Assembly: GCA_025055975.1 (NCBI GenBank)
Contig: JANWWM010000084.1
Location: 309 to 64,308 of the forward strand
Length of the DNA: 64,000 nucleotides
From: Chloroherpetonaceae bacterium
Lineage (GTDB): Bacteria > Bacteroidota > Chlorobiia > Chlorobiales > Thermochlorobacteraceae
Reading direction: 5' to 3'
A program made the translations under genes and the position numbers. Shown here one piece after another: positions 29,933 through 39,659 of the stretch. The notes under the pieces are model-generated. The model was not told the DNA's origin, searched no databases, and worked only from the letters and a program-made list of their open reading frames with translations. Every line of letters starts with the position of its first letter. Positions within the stretch are counted from its first letter, which is position 1.

Positions 29933-31267
29933 ATGAATCGAGACGATTTCATCGACCTTTACGCTGAATTGGGACTCACGCAAAACGCGACCGAAGCCGA
30001 AATCAAACGCGCTTATACGGAGCGCATCAAGGAAGTCCACCCCGATAGGCTTCAAAACGCTTCCGAGCAAGAACGCAAGCGCGCCGAAGAAAAATCGCAA
30101 CGCCTCAACCAAGCCAAAGAAATTTTGCTCGACCCCGACAAACGCTTCCGCTACGACAATCTCTACCGCGAAAAACTTTCCGAAGCCGTCATCGCCGCAT
30201 CGGAATACGGCTTTGACGGACGGCGATACAACGACTACGCGCAAGACATCGCCCGATTTCGCGCCGAGCGAGACGAGCGGCTCAAAGCTCGCTTTCGATA
30301 TCGCCCGCTCATCTTTCTGCTCGTCGTGATGATGGCGGGGCTTTCGCTCCTGTGGCGGCTCGTCAAACCCGAACAAATCGCCGATTTTGCCAAGCCCAAC
30401 GAAGTCATCACGCTCTCGGAGCCGATTTATTCGTTCAAAGTCGGCGCGCAAGCCTACGAACTTGCCGTCTCGGAGAACCACTGCTGGGTTGCGTCCGAAA
30501 ACAACTGCGTCAAAGCCTTTCGAAAAGAATCCCCCATGAATCCCATCCACCTGATTTCTCTTGACGCCGCGCCGCTTTCGCTCGCCCGAAAAAACGAAAC
30601 GCTTGCGATTGGCGACAAGAGCGGAACGCTCACGCTCGCCAATTTGACCGACGGGTCAAAAAAGGTTATCAAAGCCCATAGCTCCGCCATTAGCGCGGTT
30701 CAATTCAGTCCGACGGGCGGAGAACTGCTCACGGCGAGTTGGGACAAAACTCTTCGCGTCTGGAACGTCAAAACGGGCGAACAGCTTCGCACGCGAATGG
30801 GCATCGCGTTTCCGATTTATTCCGCCACCTTCGATGCGTCGGGAACGTTCATCGCCTTCACCAACGACGCGCAAGCGATGCTTTGGAATTGGCGAGACGG
30901 CGCGATGAAATCGCTCGCGCTTCACAAACGCCGCATTTTCGCCACCGCCGCTTTCGGCGAATGGTTCGCAACCGCAGGGGAAGATCGCGTCATCAAGCAA
31001 ATTCACTTCAAGACCAATGGCGCGCGCATCATCGAAGACGAAGTCGCCGTCAAAATCGCTTACCGTCCCGACGGCAAACTCATCGCCGCCGCTGGACAAG
31101 ACGGGCGCGCCCGCCTCTACGACGCGCAAACGGGCAAAAAACTTGAAGTCATCAACGCGCACCGAGCGAAAATCAACGCCGTCGCCTTCTCGCCCGACGG
31201 CAAAGAACTCTACACCGCCAGCGCCGATAGCCTCGTAAAAGTTTGGGATTTGAGGAAATACGATTAG
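29933..31267 (+). CDS. J-domain + TM + WD40-repeat protein
   Basis: HPD motif (EVHPDR), TM, WD40 repeats (HSSAISAVQFSP...TLRVW; HRAKINAVAFSPDG...VKVWD). Confidence 0.88.
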   Translation: MNRDDFIDLYAELGLTQNATEAEIKRAYTERIKEVHPDRLQNASEQERKRAEEKSQRLNQAKEILLDPDKRFRYDNLYREKLSEAVIAASEYGFDGRRYNDYAQDIARFRAERDERLKARFRYRPLIFLLVVMMAGLSLLWRLVKPEQIADFAKPNEVITLSEPIYSFKVGAQAYELAVSENHCWVASENNCVKAFRKESPMNPIHLISLDAAPLSLARKNETLAIGDKSGTLTLANLTDGSKKVIKAHSSAISAVQFSPTGGELLTASWDKTLRVWNVKTGEQLRTRMGIAFPIYSATFDASGTFIAFTNDAQAMLWNWRDGAMKSLALHKRRIFATAAFGEWFATAGEDRVIKQIHFKTNGARIIEDEVAVKIAYRPDGKLIAAAGQDGRARLYDAQTGKKLEVINAHRAKINAVAFSPDGKELYTASADSLVKVWDLRKYD

Positions 31268-31379
31268 CGCTCGCGCGGCTTGGCGACTCGCCATCGTAGA
31301 ACATTTCGCTCGCCCCTTGCGTTAGAAACCCTTGCGGTTTCCGTATATTCTCGGCAACATTTCATTTTTGGTGGAAGTT

Positions 31380-31772
31380 ATGCCTGAAACGAGGGAAAAA
31401 GTCGCGGGTCGGCGCTACTCTCGCCAGCGCGAAGAAGTCCTGCGCGTCGTGCGAAACGCGAATTCGCATCCTACGGCTGATTGGGTCTATGAGCAAGTCC
31501 GCAAAACCTTGCCCCGCGTTAGTCTCGGCACGGTCTATCGCAATCTCAACTTGCTCGCGGACGAAGGTCTGATTCAGCGCGTCATTTTGGACGATGGCGT
31601 CATGCGATACGATGGCAAAACGCGCGCGCATCATCACTTCATCTGCTCGAAAACGGGCAAAATTTACGACGTCGAGTTCAATCTTTGCGAAGACCTTTTG
31701 GAAAAATTCAACGCGCAAACGGGCTTCAAGGCGACGCGCTACAAGATCGAGTTCTACGGCTCAGAGGAGTAA
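31380..31772 (+). CDS. Fur-family regulator, PerR-like
   Basis: HPTADWVY, SLGTVYRNL, HHHFIC; upstream of dps. Confidence 0.9.
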   Translation: MPETREKVAGRRYSRQREEVLRVVRNANSHPTADWVYEQVRKTLPRVSLGTVYRNLNLLADEGLIQRVILDDGVMRYDGKTRAHHHFICSKTGKIYDVEFNLCEDLLEKFNAQTGFKATRYKIEFYGSEE

Positions 31773-31778
31773 CGAGCG

Positions 31779-32762
31779 ATGAACGCGGCAGTTTTGGAAG
31801 GCGTCAATCTCCCTCTTCAACTCAAATCCGTCGATGCGCCCTCGATTTCCGACCGCGAAGCCCTCGTCAAACTTCACGCCGCCGCGCTCAATCACCGCGA
31901 TTTGTGGATTCAGAAAGGTCAGTATGCGGGGTTGAAATTTCCCATCATTCTCGGCTCTGATGGCGCGGGCGTCGTCGTCGAGTGCGCCGATGCGTCTTGG
32001 ATTGGCAAAGACGTCGTCATCAATCCAAGCTTGGATTGGGGCGAGCGCGAAACGGCGCAACAAAAATCGTTTCGCATCTTGGGCTTGCCCGACAATGGCA
32101 CGTTCGCCGAGTTCGTCAAAGTTCCGATTCAGAATCTTTGCGAGAAGCCAAAGCATCTTTCTTGGACGGAAGCGGCGGCGTTGCCGCTTGCGGGCTTGAC
32201 CGCCTATCGCGCCCTTTTTTCTCGCGCAGGCTTGAAGCCAAAAGAAAAAGTCTTGATTACGGGCATTGGCGGCGGCGTGGCGCTGTTCGGACTTCAATTC
32301 GCGCTGGCGATTGGCGCGGACGTTTGGGTTACGTCGGGTTCGGACGATAAAATCGCAAAGGCGATCGCGCTCGGCGCAAAAGGCGGCGCAAACTACAACG
32401 ACGCGAATTGGGATTCCGAACTCAAATCCGTTGGCTTCGACGTGATTCTTGACAGCGCGGGCGGAGACGGGTTCTTGAAACTCATCGAACTTGCGGCAAT
32501 GGGCGGACGCATCGTCTTCGTCGGAGCCACCAAAGGCGCGCCATCTTCGCTCCCGATGACGCGCGTTTTTTGGAAACAACTTTCTATTTTAGGCTCGACG
32601 ATGGGTTCGCCAAAAGATTTCTCGCAAATGCTCGACCTCGTGAACGCCAAGCGGATCGTTCCCATCGTCAGCGACGTTCTTTCGCTTTCCGCCGCTGAAC
32701 AAGGGCTTCGCAAGATGGACGGCGCGGCTCAGTTCGGCAAAATCGTCTTGCAAATCATTTAA
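31779..32762 (+). CDS. MDR-family NAD(P)-dependent oxidoreductase (quinone reductase-like)
   Basis: LNHRD, GSDGAG, TGIGGGVA, GKIVL. Confidence 0.9.
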   Translation: MNAAVLEGVNLPLQLKSVDAPSISDREALVKLHAAALNHRDLWIQKGQYAGLKFPIILGSDGAGVVVECADASWIGKDVVINPSLDWGERETAQQKSFRILGLPDNGTFAEFVKVPIQNLCEKPKHLSWTEAAALPLAGLTAYRALFSRAGLKPKEKVLITGIGGGVALFGLQFALAIGADVWVTSGSDDKIAKAIALGAKGGANYNDANWDSELKSVGFDVILDSAGGDGFLKLIELAAMGGRIVFVGATKGAPSSLPMTRVFWKQLSILGSTMGSPKDFSQMLDLVNAKRIVPIVSDVLSLSAAEQGLRKMDGAAQFGKIVLQII

Positions 32763-32783
32763 CCTTAACCAAAGGAGGCAATT

Positions 32784-33272
32784 ATGTCGACCGAAGTAAG
32801 AGTCAAACACACGACGCCTGCCGTTATGGCCGCTTTGGATCAGCACATCGCTAGCGCGGCGATGCTTTCGACCAAATACAAAAAGTTTCATTGGTATGTC
32901 TCGGGACCGTTCTTCAAATCGCTCCACGAGCTTTTCGATGAACACTATAAGCAACTCATTGACATCATTGACGACCTTGCCGAACGATCGCGCGCCATTG
33001 GGGGCTATCCCGTAGGCACGATGCGCGAGTTCATCGAGCTTTCGCTCGTCAGCGACGCGGACGGCACGATGTTCTCGCCGCTCGAAATGGTCGAAACGCT
33101 CCATGCCGACACCGATAAAATCATTGACGCGCTTCACGAACACATCCAACTCGCCACGAAAGACAACGACCCTGGCACCGCCGACATTCTCACGCAAGTA
33201 ACGCAAGTCTATCAGAAGCAGGCATGGTATCTGGCGGAAACGAAGGCGAGAAAGGTCTTGGGCGAATTCTAA
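32784..33272 (+). CDS. dps: Dps family DNA-protecting mini-ferritin
   Basis: FHWYVSGPFF.SLHELFDE..., DDLAER, DPGTAD. Confidence 0.93.
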   Translation: MSTEVRVKHTTPAVMAALDQHIASAAMLSTKYKKFHWYVSGPFFKSLHELFDEHYKQLIDIIDDLAERSRAIGGYPVGTMREFIELSLVSDADGTMFSPLEMVETLHADTDKIIDALHEHIQLATKDNDPGTADILTQVTQVYQKQAWYLAETKARKVLGEF

Positions 33273-33373: not shown

Positions 33374-33381
33374 CTGCGTCG

Positions 33382-33453
<72 letters not shown>

Positions 33454-33608: not shown

Positions 33609-34931
33609 TCACCACTCTTCGCGCTTGCCGCCGCGAAAGCCCGCCGAGCGTTCAGGAATGGAGAAATTTTGCGCGACGATGCGCACCGCTTGCTCGAAGA
33701 CTTCGGCGATGGGCTTTTGATGCTTGCGCGACAACAGTTCCGCCGTGCGCTGAATTTCTTTGATGTGCGACCCCGTGAAGCGCTTGTTGTAGCAAAGCGC
33801 CTTTTGCTCTTGCGAAATGCCTTCGCCTTTGAAGTAAAGCTCAATGAGTTGGTCGATTTCCTTCGGCGTGGGCAGGTTGAACTTGTATTTTCGGTTGAAG
33901 CGCACGGGTCGCTCCGCGATGGCTTCGTCCAAATACTCAATGTGGTTCGTCGTAGCGACGAAGACGATTTTTTCGTCGTGTTCATACAGTCCCGAAATGA
34001 ACTGCAAGAAATCCGCCAAATCGGAATTGGGACGGAACTCGCGGCTTTCGCCGAAAGAATCGATGTCTTCCATCACCACGATGCAGGGCGAAAGAAACTT
34101 CGTCAGAAACTCGTTCAGAATGGCGTAGTTGACTTGCGTGGTCAGGAAGCAGGTCGAAAAGCCGCGCTTCAAGGCTTCGGCGATGATGGCTTGGCAACAA
34201 AGCGATTTGCCCGTGCCTGGCTTGCCGTGCAAAATGATGCCGTTGTTGCCTTTGATGGTCTCGAAGTGCAGAATCGTTTGGTCGAAGATGTCTTCTTTCA
34301 TCTGGGGGTCGCAGATGATTTGGTCGAGGGTGATGTCGGGCGGCTTTTTGAACAGACACTCGTATTCGCGCCGACCCGATTGCACGATTTGAATGTGCTT
34401 GTTGCGCAGCGGATTGTTCCACTTGATTTCGCGGTTGATGCGCTCGACCATTTCGGAAATGTCGCCGCTTCCCGTGAGCGTGTTCGATGGCGTGTGCGTC
34501 TCCGTGGCGACGGTGTAAACAAACACCTTGTCTCGATGCGAAAAGGCTATCGAGCCATCGGTCAAGATGGAGGTTTTCTTCTGATAGTCGTAGGTGAACT
34601 CCGCCGAGTTTTCGCGCCGCAGCACGAGCATATCGCTTTGGATTTGGCGAATGAAGCGTTGAATCACGAACGCCATGACCAAGTGCGAGTATTCCGCCAT
34701 CGCCGTCCAAGAATACGAGTTCCTTTGCAGGCGCGCGTCGTCCGCTTGCGGCGCGTCAGGCTTGCCCAAAATGTTTGCCAAGTCCATCTCGCTATCCCGA
34801 TACACGTCGGAGGACATATTGACTCGAATTTCGTCGGAATTGCGTTTCATTGCCCGATGCCAGTCTTCTGGAAACATTATCGTTTTGCGTTGGTTAAGTT
34901 GAACAAGAACGTCTTTGGGCGTTGCGCCCAT
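33609..34931 (-). CDS. AAA+ ATPase (single classical AAA domain, unrecognised N-terminus)
   Basis: Walker A HGKPGTGKS, Walker B IVVMEDID, ATTNH, ERPVRFN; start uncertain. Confidence 0.88.
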   Translation of the reverse strand: MGATPKDVLVQLNQRKTIMFPEDWHRAMKRNSDEIRVNMSSDVYRDSEMDLANILGKPDAPQADDARLQRNSYSWTAMAEYSHLVMAFVIQRFIRQIQSDMLVLRRENSAEFTYDYQKKTSILTDGSIAFSHRDKVFVYTVATETHTPSNTLTGSGDISEMVERINREIKWNNPLRNKHIQIVQSGRREYECLFKKPPDITLDQIICDPQMKEDIFDQTILHFETIKGNNGIILHGKPGTGKSLCCQAIIAEALKRGFSTCFLTTQVNYAILNEFLTKFLSPCIVVMEDIDSFGESREFRPNSDLADFLQFISGLYEHDEKIVFVATTNHIEYLDEAIAERPVRFNRKYKFNLPTPKEIDQLIELYFKGEGISQEQKALCYNKRFTGSHIKEIQRTAELLSRKHQKPIAEVFEQAVRIVAQNFSIPERSAGFRGGKREEW

Positions 34932-34986
34932 TTCTGTATACCTCGCCCACCCCGACAAAATTTGTCCGTCAGCGAAAAACGTTCGT

Positions 34987-35286
34987 TTATCTTTGCGAGC
35001 GACTGCGCGTGATGAGCCGAAGCGTGTCGGTTGAGGTCAGAACGATGTGGTTGATGCTTTGCAGGGGGACGATGAATTCCATCATTCCCTTCTTGTCCTC
35101 CGACCATTGCAGACGCAGGTAATCGCCCTTGACGGCTTTGATTTTGAAAACGCCATAGCGCGATTCCGTGCCGTCCCACGTCACCCACTTGCCTTCCTGC
35201 GTCGACAGCCATTCCTTGAAGGTCTCTTGCGCTTGAAGCGCGCTTGGCGACAGCGCTATGAACGCAACGAAGAGAAAACGGCGCAT
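34987..35286 (-). CDS. Small exported hypothetical protein
   Basis: Signal peptide ending LQA; co-oriented between gvpH-like and the AAA gene. Confidence 0.6.
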   Translation of the reverse strand: MRRFLFVAFIALSPSALQAQETFKEWLSTQEGKWVTWDGTESRYGVFKIKAVKGDYLRLQWSEDKKGMMEFIVPLQSINHIVLTSTDTLRLITRSRSQR

Positions 35287-35357: not shown

Positions 35358-35870
35358 TCAGGTTTTTTGGATTTTCAGGCGCGCTTCGAGAATGCCGTTC
35401 TTGCAGGATTTTGCGAGGCTTTCGGGCGCGGCGGGCGCGGGAAGCAAAATTTCTTTTCGATAAAACGCGCCCTTGCCTTTGGCGCGAAGTTCGAGGATGT
35501 CGGAATGAACTTCCAACTCGATGTCGCTTTCGGCGACGCCCGCCAGTTGCGCGTAGACGATGATTTCGTCGCCCTCAATGAACACGTCGGTTTCGGGTTC
35601 GAGAATTTTCGGCGTTGCCGTCGTGGCTTGGGCTTTTGAGGGGTTGGCTTCCTTCCTGAACGGCTTGAAGTCGGATTGAGTTCGCTCGCGGCGAATGTCG
35701 GCAAGGGTTCGGACGCGGAAGGCGTAACTTGCCTTCGCGTTTTTGCCAAGACTGATTTCGCCTTCTTGGCTCAACTCTTTGGCTTCTTCGAGGCTTTCGG
35801 CGAGTTTGGCGAGTTTTTCGAGCGCGTTGAAAAAGCCGTCAAGCTTGGTTGGTTCATCGTTCTTGTTCAT
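35358..35870 (-). CDS. gvpH: Gas vesicle GvpH-like / Hsp20 alpha-crystallin domain protein
   Basis: EPETDVFIEGDEIIVYAQLAGV...NGILE; position in gvp cluster. Confidence 0.75.
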   Translation of the reverse strand: MNKNDEPTKLDGFFNALEKLAKLAESLEEAKELSQEGEISLGKNAKASYAFRVRTLADIRRERTQSDFKPFRKEANPSKAQATTATPKILEPETDVFIEGDEIIVYAQLAGVAESDIELEVHSDILELRAKGKGAFYRKEILLPAPAAPESLAKSCKNGILEARLKIQKT

Positions 35871-35889
35871 CGTCGCAAGGGCGTTTGGC

Positions 35890-36210
35890 TCAATAGTTCA
35901 TTGAAAATTTTTTCCACTGTTTCGATTCGGGGGGCAATTCGCGCGGTTCGGTTTTGAGTTCGCCCGCTTTTTTGAGCGATTCGATTTTCGCTTCGATTTC
36001 GCGCAGTTCTTTGCTGATGTCGTTGATGCGCATCAGGAGCTCGATGCGTCGGCGGTCGACGATGCGCAGTTCTTTTTCGAGGCGTTCCTTTTCGGTGGTG
36101 AGCACATACAAGTTCAGATAGTTTTGGCTCGGCTTTTGGGGCTTTGCGGTTTTGGTTCGCGGCGGACGCTTGGCGTGGCGCGAGGTGCGAATTTCGTTGA
36201 GCGATTTCAT
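35890..36210 (-). CDS. gvpV: Gas vesicle protein GvpV-like coiled coil
   Basis: YLNLYVLTTEKERLEKEL coiled coil and C-terminal WKKFSMNY resemble cyanobacterial GvpV (recalled, not searched). Confidence 0.65.
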   Translation of the reverse strand: MKSLNEIRTSRHAKRPPRTKTAKPQKPSQNYLNLYVLTTEKERLEKELRIVDRRRIELLMRINDISKELREIEAKIESLKKAGELKTEPRELPPESKQWKKFSMNY

Positions 36211-36221
36211 CGTTGTGCCTC

Positions 36222-36542
36222 CTATGGTCGTTTGGGCGATCGCAGCGCGGCGATCGCTTGTTCGAGTTCGGCGAGTTTCGTTTTGAGTTCTTGATTTTCC
36301 TTTCGCAGCTCTCGGACTTCGGCGTTTGAGGAAAGATACGCATCGTTTCGCCACCAATCGATGCCGAGTTCGACGGCTTTGTCGACGGAGCAGATGAGCA
36401 GGCGAATTTTGACGTTGAGCAGCTCGACGTCGGCGAGGTTGATTTTGATGTCGCCCGCGACGACGACGCCTTTGTCAATGACGCGCTCCAAGATGTCGGC
36501 GAGCGTCGCCGAGCTGGTCGAGTGCGCAACTTGGTTGTTCAT
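36222..36542 (-). CDS. gvpJ: Gas vesicle protein GvpJ
   Basis: TLADILERVIDKGVVVAGDI...LLICSVDKAVELGIDWW. Confidence 0.9.
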   Translation of the reverse strand: MNNQVAHSTSSATLADILERVIDKGVVVAGDIKINLADVELLNVKIRLLICSVDKAVELGIDWWRNDAYLSSNAEVRELRKENQELKTKLAELEQAIAALRSPKRP

Positions 36543-36799
36543 TCTTCCAGTTTTTCCTTTCGGGCGTAGGCGACGACTTCGAGCGCGCCGTTGAGTCGAA
36601 CTTCGTAGAGGTTTCTATCCATCACGCGACTGGGCAAGCCAAGCGACTTGATGAAGGCGCTTTCTTCGAAGACTTCGGCGTAGCCAATCCAACCGCCGCC
36701 GTCTTGCGACGTTTTTTCGAGCTTGACGAGTTTGGCGTTTGACCCCGTCATCGCGCCGACGAACTCGGTGATTTTTTTTGCGGCTTGTTCGAAGCCCAT
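36539..36799 (-). CDS. gvpO: Gas vesicle protein GvpO/GvpR
   Basis: GW...AEVFEE...LYEVRLN...VVAYAR pattern. Confidence 0.78.
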   Translation of the reverse strand: MGFEQAAKKITEFVGAMTGSNAKLVKLEKTSQDGGGWIGYAEVFEESAFIKSLGLPSRVMDRNLYEVRLNGALEVVAYARKEKLEE

Positions 36800-36806
36800 T
36801 TGGCGA

Positions 36807-37817
36807 TTAGCGTCCGTTGACTTGTTGGCGAATGAGCGTCAAGTTCTTTTGGAGCGATTCGGCGCCGTGTTTCGCGTTGGAGACGCCGCGCAACTCGTCG
36901 TGATAGATGCGCGTGCGCTCGACGAGTTTTTTGACGATTTGACGCACTTCGTCTTGGTTGGTTCGCGCGCCGAGTCGGCTCGTTTCGGAAGTTAGAACGT
37001 CTTGGCAAATCGTCATAAAGAAGTTCGGAATCGGCGTGCCTTTGGAGCGTTGGACTTGCAAGGCGCGCGCGATCATGATGCACGCTCGAATCGTGGGCGC
37101 GAATTCGCATCTGCCGCTCTCGCGCAAGGCGCGCACGATGTCGACGATTTCCGCCGCGTCGCGCTCGGAAAGTTTGGACTTGGCGACCGTGATGGCGACT
37201 TCGGTTTCGTAATCGAAGTAATCCAAGTCAATCGTAACCATTCGATCGCGCAAAGCGTCGGCGGCTTTGTGCACGCCCGCGTATTCTTCGGGATTGCTCG
37301 TGAAAAGCGCGGTAAAGAGCGGGTGAACTTTGAGATAACTTTCCTCGCCCGCGGGCGCGTTGGCGACGTCCAAGACTTTTTCTTGCAGAACGGAGAGCAA
37401 GACGTTGTTGGCTTCGGGACGCGAGCGCGTGAACTCGTCGTAGATGAGCGTGAAGCCGTATTTGCAGGCGACGGTCAGGCGATTGTCGACCCAACGCTTT
37501 GCGACGTCTTCTTCGACTTTGAGGACGCGGCTTTGGAAGCGGTCGACGACCTTTCGGCTGTGGAAGCCGTATTCGCCGCCGACGAGGTCGCTGGTTTTGT
37601 ATTCCGAGTCGCCGTGTAGCATCACGATGGGTCGACCGATTTTGCTGGCGACGTGCATGGCGAGCGTGGTTTTGCCCGTGCCGCTCGCGCCGCGAAAGTG
37701 AACGGGAAAGCCCGCTTCGATGTAGGTCAAAGCGCGGTAAGTGATGTCTCTGACGTAAGGCGTTTCGACGAAATCCGCCATGGGTTTGGCTTCAATGACC
37801 GTGCGAGCGTCGTCCAT
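36807..37817 (-). CDS. gvpN: Gas vesicle AAA+ ATPase GvpN
   Basis: PVHFRGASGTGKT, WVDNRLT.AC, IYDEFTRSRPEANN, TSNPEEYAGVH. Confidence 0.96.
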   Translation of the reverse strand: MDDARTVIEAKPMADFVETPYVRDITYRALTYIEAGFPVHFRGASGTGKTTLAMHVASKIGRPIVMLHGDSEYKTSDLVGGEYGFHSRKVVDRFQSRVLKVEEDVAKRWVDNRLTVACKYGFTLIYDEFTRSRPEANNVLLSVLQEKVLDVANAPAGEESYLKVHPLFTALFTSNPEEYAGVHKAADALRDRMVTIDLDYFDYETEVAITVAKSKLSERDAAEIVDIVRALRESGRCEFAPTIRACIMIARALQVQRSKGTPIPNFFMTICQDVLTSETSRLGARTNQDEVRQIVKKLVERTRIYHDELRGVSNAKHGAESLQKNLTLIRQQVNGR

Positions 37818-37826
37818 AGTCGTTCC

Positions 37827-38405
37827 TCACTTTCGGGATTTGGGTGGCGCGAAAGGAATGTTGATGGCGAAGGGCGTTTCGGGTTTTGGAATGGTGGCTT
37901 TCGCTTGCGCGCTTCCGAGAATGCGATTCCAAGCGTCGCGCCCGTCGCGCCTCGTTTGTTCGTGGGTTTTGAGTTGGCGTTCCACGTCGAGCGCGATTGA
38001 ACGGACGCGCTCTCGAGTGGCTTGACGTTCTTGATTGACGCGGTTCATCAAAGTTTTGTGCGCATTGAGGCGCGTTTGATTGTCGGCGGAAAGTTTCTGC
38101 CGCAAGGCGTTGGCTTCCTGCCGCAACGCTTGGGCGATGGCGTTTCGCTCGCGCTCGTAGGTTTTGAGCATTCCTTTGGCTTCGGAGCGCAAGGCGTTTG
38201 CGCGAGAGCGAATGGCGTTCAGTTCGGCGGCGCGGCGTTGCGCGTCTTGTTTGGCTTTGCGAGCGCGTTCTTCCGCGAAGCGTTCGAGCGCTTTTTGCGT
38301 AGCGGCGCGCGCGTCGGCGACGTCTTTCATTCGGCGTTGGGCGAGGGCGGCGCGTTGATCGCGCGCGGCTTTGATGGCTTCGGCGATGGCGCGTAAGTCC
38401 GACAT
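37827..38405 (-). CDS. gvpC: GvpC-like helical repeat protein
   Basis: Ala/Arg/Glu-rich helix with L-x2-[FYV]-x2-ER motif at residues 40, 80, 120; directly upstream of gvpN. Confidence 0.6.
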   Translation of the reverse strand: MSDLRAIAEAIKAARDQRAALAQRRMKDVADARAATQKALERFAEERARKAKQDAQRRAAELNAIRSRANALRSEAKGMLKTYERERNAIAQALRQEANALRQKLSADNQTRLNAHKTLMNRVNQERQATRERVRSIALDVERQLKTHEQTRRDGRDAWNRILGSAQAKATIPKPETPFAINIPFAPPKSRK

Positions 38406-38417
38406 TGGTTGAACGAG

Positions 38418-39065
38418 TTAAGGTTTTGGATTTTTGTTGAGCCGCTCTTGTCGGAATTTTTCGAGCAAGGCGGCGACTTCGGCGCGGCGTTCCCGCAAGG
38501 CGAGGCGGCGCGCTTCGGCGTCGCGCTTGAATTTTTCAAACAAGGCTTTCGCCTCGCTCAAACGAATTTCTTTGGCTTCGACGAGCATCGCGCGCAGTTC
38601 CGCTCGCCAAGTTTCCTGCGATTCTTTGAAAGCGGCGAGGGTCGATTTCAGCCACTCGCGGCGCGCGGCGTGAAGACGCGAAAACTCCGCAAGCAAGGCG
38701 GCGACCTCCCCAAGTCGCTCGGCGCGCTCGCTCCGAAGCGACGAGAGTTCGAAGACGATTCGCTCCGAGAGTTCGGATTGCTCCGCCAAGTATTCTCGCA
38801 CCGAGGCGCGCAAGTCTTCTTCGGCTTGTTCGCAGGCGACGCTCGCGCCTTGAAACCATTGGTCAAAGTCCTTGTGCCGAAGCGAATGAAAGCGCGAAAG
38901 CCTGTGGCGCAACGTTTTGTCGCATTCGGTCAAGGTTTGGCGCGAACTTGCGGCGACGTCGCTCATCTCGGCGAGAATCGCATGCGCGGTTCGAATCGCG
39001 CCTTGAAATTCCGCGAGAGCCGAATGATACAGTTCCGCCTTTGGCGCAAGCGAATCGGGCGACAT
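38418..39065 (-). CDS. Second helical gas-vesicle accessory protein (GvpC-like?)
   Basis: All-helical, repeated EVAALLAEF / EVAALLEKF, SLRHKDFD motif; lies between gvpA and gvpC-like. Confidence 0.6.
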   Translation of the reverse strand: MSPDSLAPKAELYHSALAEFQGAIRTAHAILAEMSDVAASSRQTLTECDKTLRHRLSRFHSLRHKDFDQWFQGASVACEQAEEDLRASVREYLAEQSELSERIVFELSSLRSERAERLGEVAALLAEFSRLHAARREWLKSTLAAFKESQETWRAELRAMLVEAKEIRLSEAKALFEKFKRDAEARRLALRERRAEVAALLEKFRQERLNKNPKP

Positions 39066-39165
39066 TTCTTCAAAAAACTTTTCGGATTGATTTGGCTCGC
39101 CGCGCGCTTGGTCGTTTGAGCGCCGCAAAACGACGGGCAAACGAGCAAAGCGCCAGCCAAAGCCT

Positions 39166-39372
39166 TTACGCGGCGGTTGCGGTCAAGCCAATCGCTTCGG
39201 CGTATTTGAGATACGTTTCCACCGAGGCGATGACGACGCGCGCTTCGACCGACACCAGCTCGATGCCGACGAGCGAGACGCGCGCAAACGCATCAATCAC
39301 GATGCCCTTGTCGAGAATGCGGTCGATGACTTCCGCAAGGCTCGACGACGACGTGGATTTCTCGATAGCCAT
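39166..39372 (-). CDS. gvpA: Major gas vesicle shell protein GvpA
   Basis: [53 protein letters not shown]. Confidence 0.98.
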
Positions 39373-39590
39373 CTTTCAAACGAGTTTAAGGTTAACCGCC
39401 GAAGTTGAACGCAGAAAACGCGGCGGCGACGACTTTCTGCGGCGCGCATAAAACAGGCTCAAAGGGGAAAATTCTGCCAACCTGCGCAAATTTTTCTCGC
39501 CCTTCTCGCTCAACGCGAAAAAATTGTCCAAACTTTCGGCGCGTTTTTCCGCGACGAGCGCGGGCTCCGAATATCGTCAAAAATGATGCC

Positions 39591-39628
39591 AAAAACGAAA
39601 GGGGCGACATCACGCCCCTTTCGCTTTT
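39591..39628 (-). terminator. Intrinsic terminator after the TonB-dependent receptor (possibly bidirectional)
   Basis: 11-bp stem cgaaaggggcg-acatca-cgcccctttcg with A/T tracts on both sides. Confidence 0.8.
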
Positions 39629-39659
39629 AGGCTAACGCGAATTAGCGTCAATTAAAGCG

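Follow-up and report, generated by a model that had tools for sequence, protein, structure and literature searches.

The window analyzed here, the whole stretch of 64,000 nucleotides (nt) from contig JANWWM010000084.1 of a Chloroherpetonaceae bacterium (assembly GCA_025055975.1), contains eight consecutive genes (gvp) for gas vesicles, which are flotation organelles, in the order gvpA-X-C-N-O-J-V-H, in which X, C and V stand for helical proteins. Very probably, the eight genes constitute the principal operon of a gas-vesicle gene complement that is complete but has been split up among six unlinked loci. The set is ordinary in kind, a scattered and slightly reduced variant of a known system, and its unusual points are the degree of scattering with full retention of the genes and the reduced complement of GvpF/L. 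The evidence comes from the source genome (G000), a draft of 2.68 Mb in 92 contigs that is 85% complete with 0.22% contamination, and from a comparison set of 41 genomes of the order Chlorobiales, with the loci of ten relatives compared by tblastn and the reading of open reading frames (ORFs). Positions in the operon are given in window coordinates and those of other loci in contig coordinates, the window itself lying on contig C45.

The operon in the window and the gvp genes elsewhere in the genome

Eight co-oriented ORFs run on the minus strand from 39372 to 35358 with intergenic gaps of -4 to 19 nt, except for 100 nt after gvpA, and a terminator-like hairpin forms the upstream boundary (Table 1), all of which confirms the arrangement given in a preliminary description of this DNA. 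The hairpin sits after a gene for a 1092-amino-acid (aa) outer-membrane beta-barrel protein with OMP_b-brl_4 and CarboxypepD_reg domains. That description had called the neighbor a TonB receptor; the architecture is indeed TonB-receptor-like, but there was no Plug domain match at 1e-5.

GvpA is 95-97% identical in relatives of the same genus and family, and GvpN exceeds the cut-off of its own model. The GvpJ-like protein has halo_gas_GvpJ as its best NCBIfam match, at 47 bits and below the cut-off of that model. The identities of the last gene and of the GvpO-like gene were approached through orthologues. The H protein matched the Hsp20 model NF041800 at 6e-20, also below cut-off, and was the best genome-wide match to PF05455, and its orthologue in G034, a genome from a sister family, exceeded both thresholds (GvpH 24.4 bits, HSP20 43.7 bits). 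The GvpO-like protein has orthologues of 47-50% identity in G015, G034 and G013, and the proteins in the corresponding slot of G015, G034 and G028 reached 17.3-22.7 bits against PF05800, below the cut-off as well; a genome-wide PF05800 search revealed no better GvpO than the window gene, and tblastn of the G015 protein against plasmids returned nothing. We consider the GvpH identity of H acceptable and the GvpO identity of O probable, because the G034 orthologue of H passes the models and the sister O-slot proteins come to 17-23 bits. Of the labels assigned previously, this indirect support from orthologues extends to O and H and not to C and V; X, C and V matched no Pfam or NCBIfam family.

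As the preliminary description had stated for the 64 kb, gvpF/L, gvpG and gvpK are not in the window: the Pfam models for GvpL_GvpF, GvpG and GvpK had no match on contig C45, and the three families were absent from a Pfam scan of the 46 other window ORFs. A whole-genome hidden Markov model (HMM) search, which had been proposed as the check on an incomplete cluster, found all of them above their cut-offs. GvpL_GvpF (PF06386) matched twice on C44, with 215 and 181 bits, GvpG (PF05120) once on C44 with 62 bits, and GvpK (PF05121) on C35 with 113 bits; detection of these genes was the result named beforehand as refuting incompleteness. The likely true starts of both GvpF/L genes yield proteins of ~259 aa each. 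The two C44 loci are 6.6 kb apart with six unrelated genes between them. The genome holds three PF00741 genes, the third of which adjoins GvpK and encodes a GvpM-like protein. Its length is 77 aa and not 110 aa as in the longest ORF, since in the congeneric genome G002 the apparent extension of the orthologue contains a stop. Every locus has unrelated genes on both sides, except that of GvpF/L and GvpG near a contig end, and a thioredoxin-reductase-like gene is also found among the unrelated neighbors of the dispersed loci.

Two ATPase genes were also found, one ArsA/Get3-like and one Cdc48-like, each alone among unrelated genes. With strong matches defined as E<=1e-60 for GvpN and the ArsA type and E<=1e-100 for the Cdc48 type, the Cdc48 type occurs in 19 and the ArsA type in 18 of the 41 genomes, all within the 20 that have a strong GvpN match, and neither type occurs in any of the 21 genomes without one. 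Two gvp-positive genomes depart from this pattern: G013 (420 contigs, 97% complete) lacks both ATPases, and G003 (81% complete) lacks the ArsA type. On this distribution the two genes are gvp-specific, because they are found only in genomes with strong GvpN, and their co-occurrence with gvp genes even when unlinked offers independent genomic evidence for membership in the system. With these two ATPases the set therefore comprises 15 genes at six loci. All 15 are intact, and they lie on five contigs rather than being physically clustered in one or two adjacent operons, as gvp genes usually are. The earlier suggestion of a split two-locus system was thus right about the split and wrong about the number.

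Table 1. Positions of gvp genes and associated elements. Operon features are in window coordinates, other loci in contig coordinates; model cut-offs are in brackets.
Feature	Location	Strand	Remarks
gvpA, major shell protein, 68 aa	39166..39372	-	PF00741 4.4e-16; NF006874 129.5 bits (100)
X, helical protein	38418..39065	-	215 aa on record (ATG 39065); 240 aa from longest start 39140
C, basic amphipathic single-helix protein, 192 aa	37827..38405	-	no family match
gvpN, AAA+ ATPase, 336 aa	36807..37817	-	TIGR02640 324.9 bits (266.8)
GvpO-like, 86 aa	36539..36799	-	PF05800 just 13.8 bits (25), E 0.059
GvpJ-like minor shell protein, 106 aa	36222..36542	-	PF00741 5.2e-16; C-terminal coiled-coil tail
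V, coiled-coil protein, 106 aa on record	35890..36210	-	internal ATG; no family match
Hsp20/GvpH-like, 170 aa	35358..35870	-	PF05455 20.1 bits (22); HSP20 weak
gvpA leader/promoter region	39373..39588	-	inverted repeat GCAGAAA-N16-TTTCTGC at 39411-39440
Terminator-like hairpin	39589..39630	-	18-pair stem, 9 G-C pairs, then T-run; upstream boundary of operon
GvpF/L + GvpG	C44:918-2113		flanks: IF-2B/MtnA-family gene, GHMP kinase
Second, solitary GvpF/L	C44:8750-9556		flanks: ComEC, Lrp regulator
GvpM-like shell paralogue + GvpK	C35:42155-42716		beside divergent NUDIX gene
gvp-type ArsA/Get3-like ATPase	C85:46930-48015		PF02374; 47% identical to G034 cluster protein; SbtA neighbor
gvp-type Cdc48-like double-AAA ATPase	C83:36036-38156		CDC48_N + two AAA domains; 62% identical, full-length, to G034 protein; flanks: RecO, glycosyltransferase

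Dispersal, descent and selection

In three genomes from other families of the order (G015, G028 and G034), all of these families lie in one run of 12-13 kb and 17-18 genes with the order gvpA (1-2 copies)-X-C-like-N-V-J-Hsp20-ArsA-Cdc48-F(J-domain)-F-F-G-O-F-M-F-K. G015 and G028 each have five PF06386 matches and G034 has four, versus only two in the source genome (85% complete), neither of which is fused to a J-domain. Genomes of the window's own family (G006, G007, G008 and G002) form a graded series. G006 (genus g2) has two loci, a front operon with ArsA and Cdc48 downstream and, elsewhere, F/L-G-F-M-K next to MtnA; G007 (genus g3) has three, consisting of the front operon, ArsA together with Cdc48, and F/L-G-F-M-K; G008 (genus g4) has five, with K, ArsA and Cdc48 each alone; and G000 and G002 (genus g1) have six. 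In G006 (L051 605-4499), a toxin-antitoxin-like pair lies between gvpH and the ArsA-like gene, and a lipoprotein gene and an adenylate cyclase gene on the opposite strand lie between ArsA and Cdc48; these insertions are cluster erosion at an early stage. The flanks of the F/L-G, solitary F, ArsA and Cdc48 loci are the same in G000 and G002, and these moves therefore predate the genus; the flanks of M-K differ, and rearrangement is therefore ongoing. Among 12 species of the family, GvpN is present in all and GvpK in 11, and in all 11 genomes having both the two are on different contigs. We propose that the ancestor carried a contiguous chaperone-rich cluster of 17-18 genes, A-X-C-N-V-J-H-ArsA-Cdc48-F-F-F-G-O-F-M-F-K, and that the window's family would have lost three of five GvpF/L paralogues as the cluster progressively dispersed.

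These comparisons bear on two alternatives. One is that the eight-gene operon is self-sufficient, a minimal architecture with X, C and V, the helical proteins, standing in for GvpF/L, GvpG and GvpK, as the preliminary description had allowed. The operon is compact, with a terminator upstream, and is kept as a unit in all four genera, which speaks for this reading, but two GvpF/L genes, GvpG and GvpK occur at other places in the genome as intact genes under purifying selection. Moreover, X, C and V are additions rather than substitutes, because they co-exist with GvpF/L, G and K in the contiguous sister clusters. This explanation has practically no chance of being correct. The other alternative is a binning or assembly artifact, in which contigs came from another organism or the assembler broke a cluster that is truly contiguous. 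The fragmentation and incompleteness of the draft would permit this, as would the position of one locus close to a contig end. Contamination is very low, however, and the same dispersal with the same flanking genes recurs in G002, a 100%-complete assembly of 30 contigs whose six loci lie on six contigs of 107-473 kb; the loci are embedded among unrelated genes, and the dispersed genes share the identity gradient of the operon genes described below. An artifact is extremely unlikely.

The sequences also bear on where the genes came from. For every gene, identity decreased from genus to family to order: the values for GvpN were 88% in the genus, 72-75% in the family and 60-63% in sister families, and those for GvpK 73%, 49-51% and 48-51% within genus, family and order. 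Maximum-likelihood (ML) trees of 11 GvpN, 10 GvpJ and 8 GvpK sequences, drawn from the fetched loci and restricted to matches covering >=60% of the query, recovered the sister clade with support of 95/92, 89/96 and 93/97, respectively, and the GvpN tree also recovered the window's own family (89/95) and genus (100/97). A Nostoc locus lay far outside. The gene trees thus follow taxonomy, and vertical descent is indicated because the identity gradient runs from genus through family to order and the trees agree.

The preliminary description had instead seen a mosaic, which would require horizontal transfer from cyanobacterial-type and haloarchaeal/Gram-positive-type sources. V does have look-alikes in Nostoc, and its nearest ESM Atlas clusters are in Cyanobacteriota. 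Transfer of whole clusters also occurs within the order: in the GvpN tree, the f2-family genome G015 groups with G034 of family f4 (support 98/93) within a clade to which G028, also of f4, belongs, which suggests that an entire contiguous cluster moved between families. The Nostoc look-alikes are nevertheless weak (33-38% identity over 39-61 residues), with gvp genes within 8 kb at only one of three loci, and all eight families have their closest homologues in the same order and the same cluster type, within single sister clusters. In the trees of GvpN, GvpJ and GvpK, the window's own family and the sister clade stand apart, with Nostoc well outside both. Judged by these trees the set is not a mosaic, and assembly from such distant sources is highly unlikely.

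The genes are under purifying selection. The ratio of nonsynonymous to synonymous substitution rates (dN/dS), calculated by the Nei-Gojobori method between G000 and G002 for 13 genes, was 0.02-0.31 for 12 of them: 0.02 for gvpA, 0.07-0.08 for N, O and J, 0.10 for F/L, 0.13 for K, 0.19 for V, 0.23 for H, 0.25 for the second F, 0.26 for X and 0.31 for C. None of the matches in G000 contained a stop codon.

Several points weigh against a complete, dispersed and vertically inherited set. The count of six loci in a draft of this kind assumes that no contigs closely abut one another, and the GvpF/L-GvpG locus starts 917 bp from its contig end, with the same flanks in mid-contig in G002. The polarity that makes the contiguous state ancestral depends on one sister clade and a single Nostoc locus, and the two contiguous lineages are not independent, because the G015 cluster nests inside the clade of another family. 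Values of dS were 0.8-1.6, near saturation, so that the ratios are rough; dS was undefined for gvpG, and the gvpM value came from only 28 codons. In G010 the matches to GvpF/L (C37:5909-6639) and to the Cdc48-like gene (C9:20724-22765) each consist of two abutting pieces, and in G009, from the same related genus as G010, the Cdc48-like match (C22:165820-167919) holds one TAG; these may reflect the start of decay or assembly errors. No motif common to the six loci was found in a search that covered only the inverted repeat of the gvpA leader, which occurs once in the genome. Finally, vesicle production is predicted here from gene content, and a literature search of article texts turned up no publication about gvp genes of Thermochlorobacter or the family.

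Some of the same observations would fit a relic or repurposed system. On that view vesicles are no longer made by the lineage, the genes became scattered because selection on their co-regulation was relaxed, and those that survive are decaying or have taken on other tasks, as the ATPases might in general proteostasis. Clusters usually fall apart once co-expression stops mattering, three GvpF/L paralogues are gone, X was not found in G008, some gene matches in G010 and G009 are interrupted, and we found no paper describing gas vesicles in the family. Yet all 15 genes are intact in G000, low dN/dS extends to the dispersed F/L, second F and K genes, GvpN and GvpK are retained almost throughout the family, and GvpA is nearly invariant across genera. 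The restriction of the Cdc48 and ArsA types to gvp-positive genomes is also contrary to a general housekeeping role. We therefore regard a relic as unlikely.

By analogy with known gvp systems, GvpA would form the ribbed shell of the vesicle, and assembly would be nucleated by GvpJ and GvpM together with GvpF/L, G, K and O. Growth and the handling of hydrophobic subunits would fall to GvpN and the two extra ATPases with Hsp20, and the basic amphipathic helix of C, perhaps with X, would lie on the outer vesicle surface as GvpC does. We tentatively entertain the further possibility, about which we are more doubtful than confident, that this hot-spring-associated family makes working vesicles with a set refactored by nature, comprising 15 genes spread over six unlinked loci, two GvpF/L proteins in place of the usual five, a repeat-less single-helix GvpC analogue with a conserved FAINIPF tail, and co-regulation acting in trans instead of operon linkage. 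If true, this would show that gvp genes need no co-transcription and which accessory genes of a widespread chaperone-rich type are dispensable, and it would put moderately heat-adapted parts on offer.

It is customary to regard gas-vesicle genes as single clusters, also when they are mined for acoustic-reporter engineering. The present case indicates that a lineage can keep a full gvp set under purifying selection while scattering the genes, and a survey confined to clusters would wrongly call such genomes incomplete, as happened in the preliminary description. The series of two, three, five and six loci across four genera provides a clean natural record of cluster disassembly, and the three lost GvpF/L paralogues, together with the loss of X in one genus, point to dispensable accessory genes. 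In the same search of article texts, no paper on scattered gvp genes in Chlorobiales was found.

The helical proteins, the gvpA leader and neighboring genes

C was related to a protein of 325-388 aa in the same slot of the sister clusters by hhalign (probability 96.5, E 9e-10), the match covering the N-terminal and central part of the longer protein. The sister proteins show strong 33-residue self-periodicity in G034 (0.27 versus a shuffle maximum of -0.34 +/- 0.05) and G015 (0.13 versus -0.20 +/- 0.05), which was not clear in G028, and have a winged-helix-like domain at the C-terminus. In Pfam they match apolipoproteins weakly, in agreement with the annotation quoted for Prosthecochloris in a passage of PMC10158934. 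C itself has no significant 33-residue repeat, its best self-similarity being a weak one at lag 58, and it has lost the repeats and C-terminal domain of its sister homologues. AlphaFold2 (AF2) predicts one uninterrupted helix over residues 2-162, with the mean predicted local distance difference test score (pLDDT) of 10-residue blocks mostly at 94-98, followed by a predicted disordered tail that bears an invariant F-x-I-x-I-P-F motif. Hydrophobicity along C peaks at a period of 3.60 residues, a level reached by 0.4% of 500 shuffles, and the net charge is +21. The GvpC model PF01304 had no match in C, X, the sister homologues or anywhere in the genome at E<=1. By analogy, C is probably a GvpC-like surface brace.

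Homologues of X follow gvpA in G002, G001, G007, G006, G013, G015, G034 and G028, and its structural look-alikes in the ESM Atlas, which were uninformative, are nameless protein clusters from Bacteroidota, Chlorobiota and Zixibacteria. For X, AF2 predicts four long helices (pLDDT 79.9; predicted template modeling score, pTM, 0.69), with hairpin turns that carry the conserved sequences SLRxKDFD and IRLxDVK, two copies of an R-x-K/Q-D-F/V motif. A Foldseek search of this fold against the PDB gave no match at E<=0.001 and generic helical bundles only. A profile search found no member of the X family in the whole G008 genome (99% complete), where gvpA is followed directly by the C homologue, and X therein appears dispensable for the genus. 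We also considered whether X and C are paralogues. BLASTP gave an E of 0.002, two hhalign alignments gave probabilities of 87.6 and 47.7, and the X profile touched a C-like gene at E 3.5e-5 to 9e-5, which is suggestive and may be compositional in helical proteins; we do not claim the relationship.

V always adjoins gvpJ, between N and J in the sister clusters and after J here. On record V starts at the internal ATG and has 106 aa; the 155-aa ORF of the ORF list overlaps gvpJ. At E<=1e-3 a profile search with V retrieved 602 representative proteins, of which 97 reached <=1e-10, with lengths of 95-125 aa in nearly every case, and by these matches V is a member of a large family of ~105-aa proteins that has no family name. 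No GvpV model in Pfam or NCBIfam matched V, and ten matches of the V profile had only "hypothetical" or unrelated automatic names. When 84 members of the family were compared with NCBIfam, none matched a gvp family and the commonest match was FlbB (20/84), which we take as coiled-coil noise. Searches of plasmids by tblastn with V and X returned nothing.

The inverted repeat in the gvpA leader lies 39-68 nt upstream of the gvpA start and is kept at this place in two further species of the genus, one of which has an arm change that is G.U-compatible. Its role may be that of a leader hairpin or of an operator. The folding energy of the leader was not better than that of shuffles (z = +0.97), no sigma-70-like promoter was found in the leader region, and a role as an operator shared among the loci was ruled out by its uniqueness to gvpA in the genome-wide search. 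In G002 (L021 10929-12647), a gene for a 572-aa PAS histidine kinase directly follows gvpH, and G000 has no such gene there; in the sister species the kinase is thus a candidate for local regulation.

Downstream of gvpH, at 33609-35286 on the minus strand, lie a 99-aa ORF with a signal peptide and a gene for a 449-aa AAA ATPase, separated by gaps of 71 and 28 nt with no terminator predicted between the three genes. The ATPase is present in all five other species of the genus and in none of seven genomes outside it at 1e-30, and it has a 72%-identical paralogue on C14 and a PADLOC match to IetA at 1e-13. It may be a defense gene or a genus-specific rider on the operon, and neither it nor the 99-aa ORF was counted as a gvp part, being genus-specific with weak IetA-like matches. 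A tRNA-Met (CAT) gene at 33381-33453 on the minus strand lies just downstream of the ATPase and is followed by a terminator-like hairpin at 33375-33354. On the plus strand, at 29933-31267, a gene encodes an N-terminal DnaJ domain fused to WD40 repeats, a few kb from genes for a Fur regulator, a zinc alcohol dehydrogenase and a Dps/ferritin-like protein (31332-33272).

The IVYWREL fraction over 1403 long ORFs was 0.403, which corresponds to a crude ~42 C by the regression of Zeldovich et al. Given this value and the Thermochlorobacter-type kinship, the host may plausibly be a moderate thermophile of warm springs.

Comparison with known gas-vesicle systems

Eight gene classes of the haloarchaeal p-vac and c-vac systems, A, O, F, G, J, K, L and M, all have counterparts in the source genome, in its A, O-like, two F/L, G, J-like, K and M-like genes. 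Unlike the haloarchaeal systems, it has no gvpD/E regulator pair and no haloarchaeal GvpC, it has the ArsA-like and Cdc48-like ATPases, X and V, and its genes are unlinked.

Like cyanobacterial GvpC (PF01304), C is the product of the second gene after gvpA and is all-helical and amphipathic. Its helix of ~161 residues is close to five 33-residue units, and its homologues in G034 and G015 have a 33-residue periodicity, PF01304 being a 33-position repeat model. C differs from cyanobacterial GvpC in having neither a PF01304 match nor a significant 33-residue repeat.

The closest likeness is to chaperone-rich gvp clusters with an arsA homologue, hsp20 and several gvpL/F genes, which passages of Castillo & Saier 2010 (PMC2963123) describe for Pelodictyon luteolum DSM 273 and Polaribacter irgensii and whose layout, by passages of PMC10158934, is that drawn for Prosthecochloris. 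Such contiguous clusters have thus already been published for green sulfur bacteria. The likeness to the published clusters was drawn from text passages, and gene orders were compared in G015, G028 and G034. Shared with the chaperone-rich type are GvpA, X, a helical protein in the GvpC slot, GvpN, V, GvpJ and Hsp20/GvpH, as well as the ArsA-like and Cdc48-like ATPases, GvpF/L, GvpG, a GvpO-like protein, GvpM and GvpK. The present set differs in the 192-aa length of its GvpC-slot protein, which is without 33-residue repeats or a C-terminal winged-helix-like domain, in having two GvpF/L genes instead of five and no J-domain fusion, in its distribution over six loci instead of one, and in the move of gvpO into the front operon.

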